DNA of 64,000 nucleotides. Source: a virus. The stretch is from positions 9,811 to 73,810 of IMG/VR virus record IMGVR_UViG_3300035670_000145. The stretch is one strand, 5' to 3'. Below are positions 25,951 through 43,201 of this stretch, piece after piece. A program made the position numbers and the translations under genes. Under the pieces are notes generated by a model. It did no database searches and was not told the DNA's origin. It saw only the letters and a list, made by a program, of their open reading frames with translations. Each line of letters begins with the position of its first letter. Position 1 is the stretch's first letter.

Positions 25951-26020
25951 GGGCTCCTCCAGGAATCGAACCCGGCATTCCAGGCTATCTGCCTGACGTG
26001 TAAACCAACACCAAGGAGCA
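25951..26020 (-). tRNA. Non-canonical tRNA-like element (Ile GAT-like loop)
   Basis: Cloverleaf GCTCCT/AGGAGC, GTGT/ACAC, TCAGG-CAGATAG-CCTGG, CCGGG-TTCGATT-CCTGG; A33, 1:72 mismatch, short D-loop, no CCA. Confidence 0.7.
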
Positions 26021-26137
26021 AGTGACCCCCAGGTTTGAGCATCGTTGAGAGGCTTAGGGGGTGTTAAACGATGGAGCAAGCGTGAGGGTCATCCGGGATT
26101 TGCCCCCAGTGACGCACAGAGGCTTGCCCGCCGTCGC
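26021..26137 (-). ncRNA. Structured RNA 5' of the tRNA-like element
   Basis: -10 TATAGT at 26143-26148; nested stems GCAAGC/GCTTGC, GTCA/TGAC, CTGGG/CCCGG; C5/G5 hairpin; CATCGTT/AACGATG complementarity. Confidence 0.55.
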
Positions 26138-26143
26138 TTGATA

Positions 26144-26653
26144 CTATAGCACCACTCTCGGCCGCAAGCCAAGGCGCACCCTGTTCTCCTCAATGCTTTC
26201 TCCGACAGATCTGCCTATTAAATACATTGCCGCGTCAAATAATGTATTTGCATCATCTTTTGCGTTGCCAAGCATTAAGTTACAGGAGCCGCATAAAATT
26301 CCTCTGACATGATTTAATGAATGGCAGTGATCCACGACAAAATTTCCGCTTGCGTGATTTGGCTCTGTAGTGCCACAAATTGCACAGCAATAATTCTGCT
26401 TGGCGAATAATTCATTCCACTGTTCAACGGTCATTCCATAATTAATCTTCAAGCTTTGCGCCCTGGATTTTTGAGCGCAATATTTCTCCTTTTGCCTTTT
26501 AAGTACATCCTCTTTTCTCTGCTCATAGCTAGAAGATGCGGCGGTTTTTGTGCATAATCTGCACCTTGCAGTAAGGCCGTCTTTTACTCTTTTTTCCTTG
26601 TAAAAATCGCTAGCCTGCTTAAGCTCACCACACATGACGCATTGTTTTTTCAT
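26144..26653 (-). mobile_element. Endonuclease VII-type homing endonuclease
   Basis: N-terminal CxxC..CxxC; YG.T..Q...CAIC...VDHCH....RG.LC..CN..LG motif; follows nrdB. Confidence 0.85.
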
Positions 26654-40126: not shown

Positions 40127-40489
40127 TCATGCCCTGGCGTAGCAGAGCCGCGCAACTCCTTGTGAGGGATTGGCCACGCGAGCAAAAGCACCGTAGGAAA
40201 GATCAAGAATGCGATCGCCATACCAAGGGCCTCGGTCGGTCACCCTCACCACCACTGACTTTCCATTGCGGGGATTGACGATGCGCAGGCGGGTGCCGAG
40301 GGGGAGCGATGGAGAAGCAACGGTGAGGCCGTAGGCATCGAAACGGCTACCATCAGCAGCTCTCTGGCCGTCGTAGCCATCTCCAATGCCATAGTGCGAA
40401 ACCAAGCCGCACGACGATCCAGCCTCCGCAGCGAATGGCACCAAAGCACCAAGGGCGACGGAAGCAGCAGAGAGAAAACGAAAAAGCAT
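40127..40489 (-). CDS. RlpA-like double-psi beta-barrel lytic transglycosylase
   Basis: Signal peptide; S.YG, LP.GT, V.VRV.DRGP....R.LDLS..AF. Confidence 0.9.
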   Translation of the reverse strand: MLFRFLSAASVALGALVPFAAEAGSSCGLVSHYGIGDGYDGQRAADGSRFDAYGLTVASPSLPLGTRLRIVNPRNGKSVVVRVTDRGPWYGDRILDLSYGAFARVANPSQGVARLCYARA

Positions 40490-40602
40490 CAGGAAGAGAA
40501 AGTAAGTAGCAGGGACCAGGGAGTCGCCTCCTGGCAGCCCTTACTGTACCAAAGTCGTCAAGCCTTTGTGCCGGGCGACAGTGAAGGTGCTATGCTTTGC
40601 AA

Positions 40603-40793
40603 GCTTGAGTTGGTCCTGAGCGAAAGCTCCGTCGTTGACGCCGTAAGGGTGGACGCTTCAGAACAGTGGGTGACTTCGCGAGAACCACCAAGGCAATGCA
40701 TGGGCCTGTAGGGCACTGTTCCCCTTTGTTGAGGGACCATGGAGCATCGGAAGCTCAAGCAGCGGGAAGGGGGAGCGAAAGCTCCCCTTTTCT
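40603..40793 (+). ncRNA. Multi-stem structured ncRNA with own promoter and terminator
   Basis: -10 TATGCT at 40591; closing stem 40603-11/40752-60; GAACAGTG/CACTGTTC; three GNRA loops; terminator 40767-40793. Confidence 0.75.
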
Positions 40794-41012
40794 ATTGCTT
40801 TGCAGGAGCAATAGGTGTTTTATCCGGCAGTGATAATTGCACTAAAAAGCGCCCCTTAATGGCGCTGTTGATTGCTGCTAGTCCAGGACGTATCGCCTGG
40901 TATGGGCTCCATACCAAATTCCCAATCGTCATAGTCAGGAGAGTTGCGCAGAGCCGCCTTTTCTTGCATTGAAAGGCCGCCTTTTCCTGCATTGGAAAGA
41001 CGGCCCTCTTGT

Positions 41013-41345
41013 TCAGAACTGGTATGGTTCGCTGCTGATTGCCACTGCATAAGCTTCAAGGTAAGCCATGAGATCATCTTCGGACGGAGCATCAGTTTGA
41101 ATTTCATCGTGCTGTTGCTTGTGCTTTGAGAGAGCTCCTTTGAGGCTGAAATAGAGCCTTTCCATCACAAGACGGTTGGCCATGTTTTCCTCGCGAAGCA
41201 TGGTCTCTTCCAATGTAGTGAGCCATTCTTCAAGGTCTTTAATGCGGAAGCTCCATGCAACGACAGGGTGGTTGCCGTTCATCACCAAAGAATTGCTCTT
41301 GGTGAAAGCAGAGGTGCCAAGCGAGTCGCGGTAGATGGTTGCCAT
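41013..41345 (-). CDS. Hypothetical protein
   Basis: 110-aa ORF with upstream TTGACG. Confidence 0.6.
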   Translation of the reverse strand: MATIYRDSLGTSAFTKSNSLVMNGNHPVVAWSFRIKDLEEWLTTLEETMLREENMANRLVMERLYFSLKGALSKHKQQHDEIQTDAPSEDDLMAYLEAYAVAISSEPYQF

Positions 41346-42460: not shown

Positions 42461-43201
42461 CTAAGGGGAATCATCTTCGGGCATGGTCAGCATTGGCCTG
42501 CTGTTGCCGGTGGGTTCGCCGTCGTCGTCAAACTCAGGCTCCACTTCTGCTTTTGCATCAATGGCAGAAGCTCTGAGTTCGGAATTGCTCTCAGCTTCTT
42601 TGATCTTTTTTACTTCCTTGGTGAGCGTATCCAGGAAGTTCTTGTAGCCGCTCTTTTCTGCCGTTTGAGGCTTGATGTCGAACAGGCCAATGAGCTTTGC
42701 TTGCTGTTCCAGACAACTGCGTGCAATGCCTAAGAAACCGCTTTCACCAGCGCTCTCCTCAATGCGCACAATTGTTTCGTCTTTGCTTTCGTTGTAAGTG
42801 GTGACTTTCTTGCGCTTGCTTTGCTCGAACGATTCCAGGGCTTTGTTCTTTAACTCGTCCTGTTCCTGCACCAGCCGTGCCCGCCAAGTGTCCTGGCTCT
42901 TCAGGATTTCATGAGTCCAGATTTGACGATTATGAATGCGATCGGAACTGACGGTCTCTTTTGACAGCAGCAACGCTTCAGCGATTTGCTTATTGCTCAT
43001 GCGAGCTGCAAGCAGCTCCTGCACCATGTAGCGCCGCTGTCCAGTGAGGTCTTTGTCGTAAGGGATTTTGCCAGGGCCTAGCCCCACTTTATTGCGAATG
43101 CGATCAATTTGCTCTGGTGTAAATCCTGCCTCTACAAGCACTTTCGTTGCATATTGCAACTGCTCTTCTTTAGAAGCAAAAGAAATCTCAGGAAGAGGCA
43201 T
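42461..43201 (-). CDS. HTH protein, candidate terminase small subunit
   Basis: N-terminal HTH (MSNKQIAEAL.LSKETVSSD) and G...FL......EQ.AKL.GL oligomerisation-type motif. Confidence 0.55.
   Translation of the reverse strand: MPLPEISFASKEEQLQYATKVLVEAGFTPEQIDRIRNKVGLGPGKIPYDKDLTGQRRYMVQELLAARMSNKQIAEALLLSKETVSSDRIHNRQIWTHEILKSQDTWRARLVQEQDELKNKALESFEQSKRKKVTTYNESKDETIVRIEESAGESGFLGIARSCLEQQAKLIGLFDIKPQTAEKSGYKNFLDTLTKEVKKIKEAESNSELRASAIDAKAEVEPEFDDDGEPTGNSRPMLTMPEDDSP

Follow-up and report, generated by a model that had tools for sequence, protein, structure and literature searches.

A predicted structured RNA gene with its own promoter and terminator in relatives of the Synechococcus siphovirus S-CBS4

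The orphan RNAs raiA, ROOL, GOLLD and OLE in Rfam are complex, covarying multi-stem folds with constant junction nucleotides and no known function, and are often found on phages or prophages. The RNA described here resembles them in each of these respects, but it matches none of them in sequence or structure, is smaller than GOLLD, ROOL and OLE, and is limited to one cyanosiphovirus lineage. Complex conserved RNA folds of similar size have often proved to be ribozymes, riboswitches or the cores of RNA-protein complexes, and to our knowledge very few such folds have been described for cyanophages; our literature search found none for cyanosiphoviruses, and no description of the present RNA in work on S-CBS4 or on covarying cyanophage RNAs. 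The riboswitches carried by cyanophages, namely the glutamine glnA RNA, PhotoRC, wcaG and manA (Weinberg et al. 2010, PMC2864571), share with it a conserved core, a variable periphery, a terminator and, in many relatives, a gene thereafter, but the RNA is far bigger than the glutamine aptamer, has no Rfam match, no expression platform was seen to overlap its fold, and its downstream gene is absent or inverted in more than half of the loci. Its covariation and constant junction nucleotides are of the kind expected of an aptamer, but it is not consistently a same-strand 5′ leader: no plus-strand gene follows it in the window (the whole 64-kb stretch of DNA that we analyzed), and the small gene c3, which often lies at its 3′ end, is on the same strand in 25 of 54 loci.

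Other stand-alone RNAs are less close. The phi29 pRNA (RF00044) is likewise a stable phage RNA of ∼170 nt, with its own promoter and terminator among early genes, but its model does not match the present RNA, S-CBS4 has an annotated large terminase, nothing ties the RNA to packaging, and pRNA belongs to phi29-like podoviruses with protein-primed replication. The 6S RNA (RF00013) is of similar length, stand-alone and closed by a stem of its 5′ and 3′ ends, but it is a rod with a central bubble, whereas the RNA is branched with three junctions, and its model too gave no match. In type III toxin-antitoxin systems (ToxIN, AbiQ/antiQ, CptIN), promoter, RNA, terminator and small gene follow one another on one strand, as they do in many relatives of our locus; c3, however, is a mostly disordered orphan of 37–65 aa rather than a ToxN/AbiQ-type endoribonuclease, and is often inverted or absent. 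Neither c3 nor the neighboring genes gave a Pfam, PHROG or PADLOC match to a ToxN/AbiQ/CptN-type endoribonuclease, no toxin family or defence protein was found adjoining the RNA (PADLOC gave nothing credible), and Tandem Repeats Finder returned 0 rows at score 30 for positions 40450–40950, where a type III antitoxin would be expected to show repeats. A type I system would call for a hydrophobic toxin and an overlapping mRNA; c3 is acidic and hydrophilic, and the two units have separate terminators ∼50 nt apart. The longest complementarity to the rest of the phage was 13 nt, about what chance would give. An initial annotation of the window had proposed a ribozyme, a protein sponge or an antitoxin-like RNA; none of these roles could be shown, and the antitoxin-like one is the weakest, because no antisense target, repeats, toxin or defence protein was found.

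Searched against Rfam 15 at the gathering threshold, the whole window returned only abiF (26025–26061), and at E ≤ 10 the RNA region and two divergent homologues gave only weak matches on the terminator, which agrees with the failure of that annotation to recognize the family. We file the RNA as a new family within a known kind, the phage-encoded structured RNAs. The abiF motif (26061..26025, minus strand; RF03085, 55.7 bits) belongs to a second non-coding unit of the window (25951–26152, minus strand), in which a GTGCTATAGT box, like the promoter of the RNA of the TGnTAnnnT type, stands ∼80 nt before the motif, and tRNA-Ile(GAT) (26019..25951) comes directly after it. A phage abiF-type RNA beside a tRNA might serve as a decoy against abortive infection.

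The window comes from a 73.8-kb IMG/VR virus record and holds a single copy of the RNA element. The phage that carries it is related to the Synechococcus siphovirus S-CBS4, which infects Synechococcus sp. CB0101: its ribonucleotide reductase is 76% and its RecA-family ATPase 58% identical to the S-CBS4 homologues, and the gene orders agree. When 50,697 phage records were searched by blastn, the RNA region matched none of them, and it took a covariance model to locate the copy in S-CBS4 (NC_016766, 64498–64734, minus strand; 83.7 bits), which is unannotated there and lies between gp093, a “lipoprotein precursor” that is the divergent DPBB homologue, and gp092, the homologue of c3. In the window, the plus-strand RNA gene is set in a run of leftward genes and stands back to back with the candidate promoter of an RlpA-like DPBB gene that adjoins it divergently in nearly all loci and whose product has a hydrophobic N-terminus, taken by eye as a signal peptide. 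Small minus-strand genes to which no function was assigned lie upstream in the minus-strand sense, beyond the 3′ end of the RNA gene, and end at a terminator facing it. We conclude that positions 40588–40797 of the plus strand are a predicted non-coding RNA gene of ∼200 nt with its own promoter and terminator, in which an extended −10 promoter is followed by a branched RNA domain of ∼160 nt and then by an intrinsic terminator. The elements of the locus are as follows.

40127 to 40489, minus strand: RlpA-like DPBB gene, divergent from the RNA gene (Pfam DPBB_1, 7.6e-18; PHROG 7930)
40543 to 40551, minus strand: TGgTACAGT, candidate extended −10 of the divergent DPBB gene, at a conserved position in homologues
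40588 to 40596, plus strand: extended −10 promoter TGcTATGCT of the RNA (TG at 40588–89, TATGCT at 40591–40596), conserved as TGnTAnnnT
40764 to 40797, plus strand: intrinsic terminator with a 12–13 bp stem, GAAA loop and U tract, from a consensus scan (hairpin at 40764–93)
40791 to 40815, plus strand: second terminator-like hairpin, CTATTGC...GCAATAG followed by TGTTTT, from a terminator scan
40848 to 40866, minus strand: terminator of the leftward unit converging on the RNA gene, from a terminator scan
40856 to 41107, minus strand: small orphan ORF with the c3 motif (LRNSPDYDDWEFGMEPIPGDTSW), converging on the RNA gene

Homologous loci were retrieved by four routes, using the DPBB protein, two DNA patterns in viral contigs, a pattern in metagenomes, and the conserved neighboring protein c2, and a covariance model built from 11 sequences was then used to recognize homologues, of which there were 129 distinct full-length RNAs of 173–259 nt. 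Among the 71 distinct RNAs found with the DPBB protein and the DNA patterns (alignment A5), 95.5–95.8% of cells were paired and 40–43 of 53 pairs showed compensatory changes; the figures were 95.0% and 43 of 53 for the 24 distinct RNAs found with a relaxed DNA pattern (A6), and 95.7% and 49 of 53 for the 55 found through c2 (A9). Since the search patterns force part of the motif invariance in A5 and A6, only A9, retrieved by alignment of c2 (43201..42461 in the window) and so independent of the RNA sequence, is free of this bias. All three alignments were fitted to the model, which favors the model; when partners were slid in A9, the fraction of paired cells fell to 48–57% and the covariation score from 0.689 to 0.09–0.17, and a MAFFT alignment fitted to no model still had compensatory changes in 33 of 53 pairs. 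The slid controls and the MAFFT result thus show that the covariation signal is not an artifact, and the check by homologue covariation that had been proposed for the fold bears it out but for one helix. Overall nucleotide identity to the window RNA was 56–72%, not above that of the DPBB gene. When one homologous locus (L005) was compared with window positions 40127–40760, the DPBB gene was 89% identical at the nucleotide level and the RNA core only 60%, a drop that suggests a mosaic (recombination) boundary between the two divergent promoters.

Upstream of the RNA, TGnTAnnnT is retained at a constant distance from the closing stem P1 in 68 homologues, among which the −10 box takes the forms TATGCT, TATGAT, TACGAT, TACTAT and TAAGAT. 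P1 begins seven bases past the box, and transcription is predicted to start at ∼40602–40604, at the foot of P1. The window contained 4 occurrences of the promoter-box pattern GTGCTAYNNT, not significantly more than the ∼2 expected. A conserved TGnTAnnnT-like box also occurs on the opposite strand, ∼45 nt further upstream than the −10 of the RNA; it lies between the RNA gene and the DPBB gene, and if it is the DPBB promoter, as we read it, the DPBB mRNA would start clear of the RNA gene. At the other end, all 12 of 12 terminator pairs covary and are 98.5–99.8% paired; homologues, too, carry the U tract on the plus strand. What looks like a sigma-70-type promoter and an intrinsic terminator thus enclose a non-coding stretch, as expected of an independently transcribed small RNA gene. 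The word GCAATAG, or (GC)TAGCTAG(A/T)CTC..AATAC, recurs just past the RNA terminator in four other loci (L111, L127, L275 and L092), and its copy in the window folds into a palindromic hairpin; the word might serve as an operator or promoter element for c3.

The plus strand of the window folds as a single sequence at −84.5 kcal/mol (z = −2.65; minus strand, z = −1.84). In the covarying fold, P1 leads into a three-way junction, of which one arm is the P2′ domain, always bearing the CC-GNRA-GG mini-hairpin P5 and usually P3 and P4, and the other is the long arm P6-P7, which splits into P8 (mostly with a GNRA loop), P9 and P10. Its parts, all on the plus strand, are listed here.

40603 to 40611 with 40752 to 40760, plus strand: closing stem P1, GCTTGAGTT/AGCTCAAGC, 9 bp; 5 of 5 modelled pairs covary, 99.2% paired in A9
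40613 to 40616 with 40651 to 40654, plus strand: P2′, GUCC:GGAC, with eight covarying forms
40618 to 40629, plus strand: P3 hairpin, GAGC-GAAA-GCUC (GAAA at 40622–25), which covaries and is 100% paired; peripheral
40630 to 40640, plus strand: P4 hairpin, CGUC-GUU-GACG, of variable length; peripheral
40641 to 40648, plus strand: P5 mini-hairpin, CC-GUAA-GG, a GNRA loop (GTAA at 40643–46) on two C-G pairs; CCGYRAGG in 129 of 129
40655 to 40660 with 40740 to 40745, plus strand: P6; 6 of 6 pairs covary
40661 to 40668 with 40714 to 40721, plus strand: P7, an 8-bp stem, GAACAGTG/CACTGTTC, with 5′ strand GAACAGUG; 8 of 8 pairs covary, 98.6% paired
40669 to 40689, plus strand: P8, a two-part hairpin with a GCGA loop (40678–81); loop GNRA in most clades
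40691 to 40707, plus strand: P9 hairpin, loop AAUGCAUGG, with covariation at 3 of 3 pairs
40722 to 40735, plus strand: P10 hairpin, which differs in length between homologues, with covariation at 3 of 3 pairs
40746 to 40751, plus strand: AUCGGA, a constant unpaired stretch joining P6 to P1; kept in 128 of 129 distinct sequences

Much of this had been read from the window alone in the initial annotation. The −10 TATGCT, the closing stem, the 8-bp stem (P7) and the two hairpins that it encloses, the GAAA, GTAA and GCGA tetraloops and the strong terminator were all found where it had placed them, with covariation in both stems. Its pairing of GGTCC with GGACC did not stand: GGACC (40734–38) is absent from most homologues, and the covarying partner of GUCC is instead GGAC at 40651–54. 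This P2′ pairing occurs as GUCC/GGAC, GCCC/GGGC, GUUC/GAAC, GCUC/GAGC, GCUU/AAGC, GCCU/AGGC, GUUUC/GAAAC and CCCC/GGGG, and also with a few U.G wobbles. In A9, CCGYRAGG and AUCGGA are both kept in every readably aligned sequence except one (L391). The first covariance model had paired AUCGGA (CC with its GG, and GA with UC), a pairing that we rejected after finding zero compensatory changes; AUCGGA stays unchanged while the bases assigned to it there vary. The P8 arm is the weakest part of the alignment (∼71–75% paired as modelled), and the sequence of the P9 loop is common rather than universal. A permissive all-against-all screen of alignment columns for extra pairs or pseudoknots was dominated by G.U noise. 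P3 and P4 are wholly absent from five divergent members, which read GGUCCU-CC-CCGUAAGG-CU-GGAC, so we regard these two hairpins as peripheral. The five minimal variants (L352:8151–8328, L354:9235–9411, L347:8289–8472, L333:8834–9025 and L391:7904–8095, all on the minus strand) are 177–192 nt long including the terminator and would be useful as a natural minimal construct for experiments.

The excess of G.U over A.C cells (484 versus 11, and 177 versus 2) fixes the plus strand, and together with the conserved promoter and terminator it upholds the strand that had been inferred from GNRA loops and G-U pairs. The region contains no conserved ORF: length differences among homologues fall in all three classes modulo 3, an open stretch on the minus strand as long as the 65 aa of the window was equalled in 644 of 2000 shuffles, and the similarity of minus-strand peptides between clades breaks at every frame shift. 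A coding reading of the minus strand was accordingly rejected, its open frame being no longer than in shuffles and its frame not conserved, and the earlier view that no credible ORF is present agrees with all three tests. With promoter, covarying fold and terminator, the locus also matches the earlier description of a stand-alone, compact multi-junction RNA opposed to its neighboring genes.

We found the RNA in 62 of 80 loci carrying c2, always opposite c2 and 1.2–4.5 kb downstream of it. Among the 18 c2 loci without the RNA, 16 end within 2.5 kb after c2, one lies on a rearranged contig of 106 kb with the RNA at another place, and the last may be a true negative; on these counts, the RNA is retained by nearly all sampled relatives of S-CBS4. 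The rearranged contig (L387/L099; IMGVR_UViG_3300027151_000002, 106,734 bp) is identical to a related 18-kb contig over the 2.4 kb that follow c2 but not beyond, so that an assembly chimera or a rearranged concatemer is probable. When 185,579 prokaryote genomes were scanned for the pattern, 100 stretches were returned, of which 3 were true, all on short MAG contigs with phage gene order, and no cyanobacterial chromosome in that scan had the motif. These three contigs (L139, L154 and L165) come from bins labelled Bacteroidetes, Rhodobiaceae and Aquiluna, and are most likely mis-binned cyanophage contigs. Viral contigs of low GC content, among them a 196-kb record, have DPBB genes with no such RNA alongside; these contigs were taken to be T4-like cyanophages from size and composition only. 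The protein c2 itself (42461–43201, minus strand) is conserved, 246 aa long, and matches PHROG 645; its S-CBS4 homologue gp086 is annotated “Rnase E”, a name that looks unreliable, and c2 shows no more than a weak GerE/LuxR-type helix-turn-helix (Pfam E = 1.7e-4, short of the cut-off), with a charged C-terminal part behind it.

What the RNA does can be approached through its surroundings and its core. Our favored guess, which we think stands about an even chance of being right, is an RNA that acts in trans and binds a protein or a small ligand at its constant junction. Host RNA polymerase would make a discrete transcript of ∼190–200 nt from the foot of P1, the two GNRA loops would lock a compact tertiary fold, AUCGGA, the P5 GNRA hairpin and P2′ would together form a specific binding site for the protein or small ligand, and the RNA would act in trans. 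This reading is favored because promoter, fold and terminator persist where no gene follows, because the terminators in the window are in tandem, because no conserved antiterminator was seen, and because a conserved structured core is combined with a dispensable periphery. Against it counts the layout of about half of the relatives, in which c3 follows the terminator on the same strand as it would behind a cis-acting leader.

The c3 family comprises S-CBS4 gp092 and the window ORF, within which the true start of c3 probably lies, together with relatives that are all orphan “hypothetical” proteins. Its members share the acidic, aromatic motif DPRNxxDYDxWxxGxEP[IL]PGDxxW (alignment A7) and have no Pfam, PHROG or PADLOC match, and the AlphaFold2 model (pLDDT 61.6) has one helix, at the N-terminus. 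Some clades carry the motif as the C-terminal tail of a longer protein. One could envision the RNA as a leader that controls c3 in cis, either like a riboswitch or as a protein-binding attenuator, in which RNA and terminator gate read-through and which has become an orphan leader in the window, where c3 is inverted. A conserved junction with a variable periphery is typical of aptamers, and the RNA has both. Within 250 nt of the RNA 3′ end, c3 was present in 55 of the 66 pattern-found loci (38 on the same strand, 17 on the opposite one), and it was near that end in 35 of the 54 loci of the unbiased set retrieved through c2 (25 and 10, respectively). Adjacency was also kept while the orientation of c3 switched at least 2 times on the RNA tree, albeit a tree from a short alignment without support values. 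In one clade (that of L033), only 26 nt, with the Shine-Dalgarno sequence AGGAG, separate the terminator from the c3 ATG, so c3 there must be read from the RNA promoter. However, 29 of the 54 unbiased loci, including the most divergent and the minimal variants, keep RNA, promoter and terminator without a same-strand c3; 8–12 variable nt separate the terminator from P1; inspection of the alignments revealed no antiterminator common to the clades; and in several other clades, the spacer between RNA and c3 is 43–84 nt long and includes a separate conserved element, so that in those clades c3 may be read from a different promoter. In the window, RNA and c3 are two convergent units, each with its own terminator. 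We regard a cis-acting leader as the main rival, though an unlikely one.

Alternatively, the RNA could be a ribozyme, self-cleaving or of other activity, with AUCGGA and the GNRA junction as its catalytic core. Several ribozyme classes are common in phage DNA, and the size, the multi-junction fold, the two conserved GNRA loops suited to tertiary docking and the few constant junction nucleotides would fit such a role, but the ribozyme families of Rfam 15 gave no match even at E ≤ 10, we saw no mark of a cleavage site, and the known small self-cleaving classes are much shorter, so that we regard this explanation as improbable. It is also conceivable that the act of transcription matters more than its product, the convergent unit insulating the DPBB gene from the leftward operon or interfering with that operon. 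The RNA gene does stand head-on to the leftward units on either side of it, and both strands carry terminators, but an insulator has no need of ∼50 covarying base pairs and constant junction bases across 129 variants, which makes this very improbable. Scarcely credible, finally, is a minus-strand signal (an element of the DPBB mRNA 5′ UTR, or a small protein) or a DNA element such as an origin or packaging site, for although the element lies ∼110 nt upstream of the DPBB start codon and has 65 open codons, pairing drops to 81–83% when the minus strand is read, the DPBB promoter-like box lies between the element and the DPBB gene, the frame is shuffle-like in length and not conserved, and G.U pairs favor RNA over DNA hairpins.

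A trans-acting RNA thus remains our preferred reading, and we tentatively entertain the further possibility that it is the first member of a new functional class in cyanophages, either a new ribozyme or a ligand-binding RNA that works as a free transcript. In the latter case, it might be an orphan aptamer for a host metabolite or signalling nucleotide, which it would sense or soak up, and in either case the active or binding site would be the junction of AUCGGA and CC-GNRA-GG. Because one of its carriers, S-CBS4, is in culture together with the host Synechococcus sp. CB0101, the role of the RNA is directly testable. The alignments are a ready seed for a new RNA family, which would correct the annotation of S-CBS4-like genomes.
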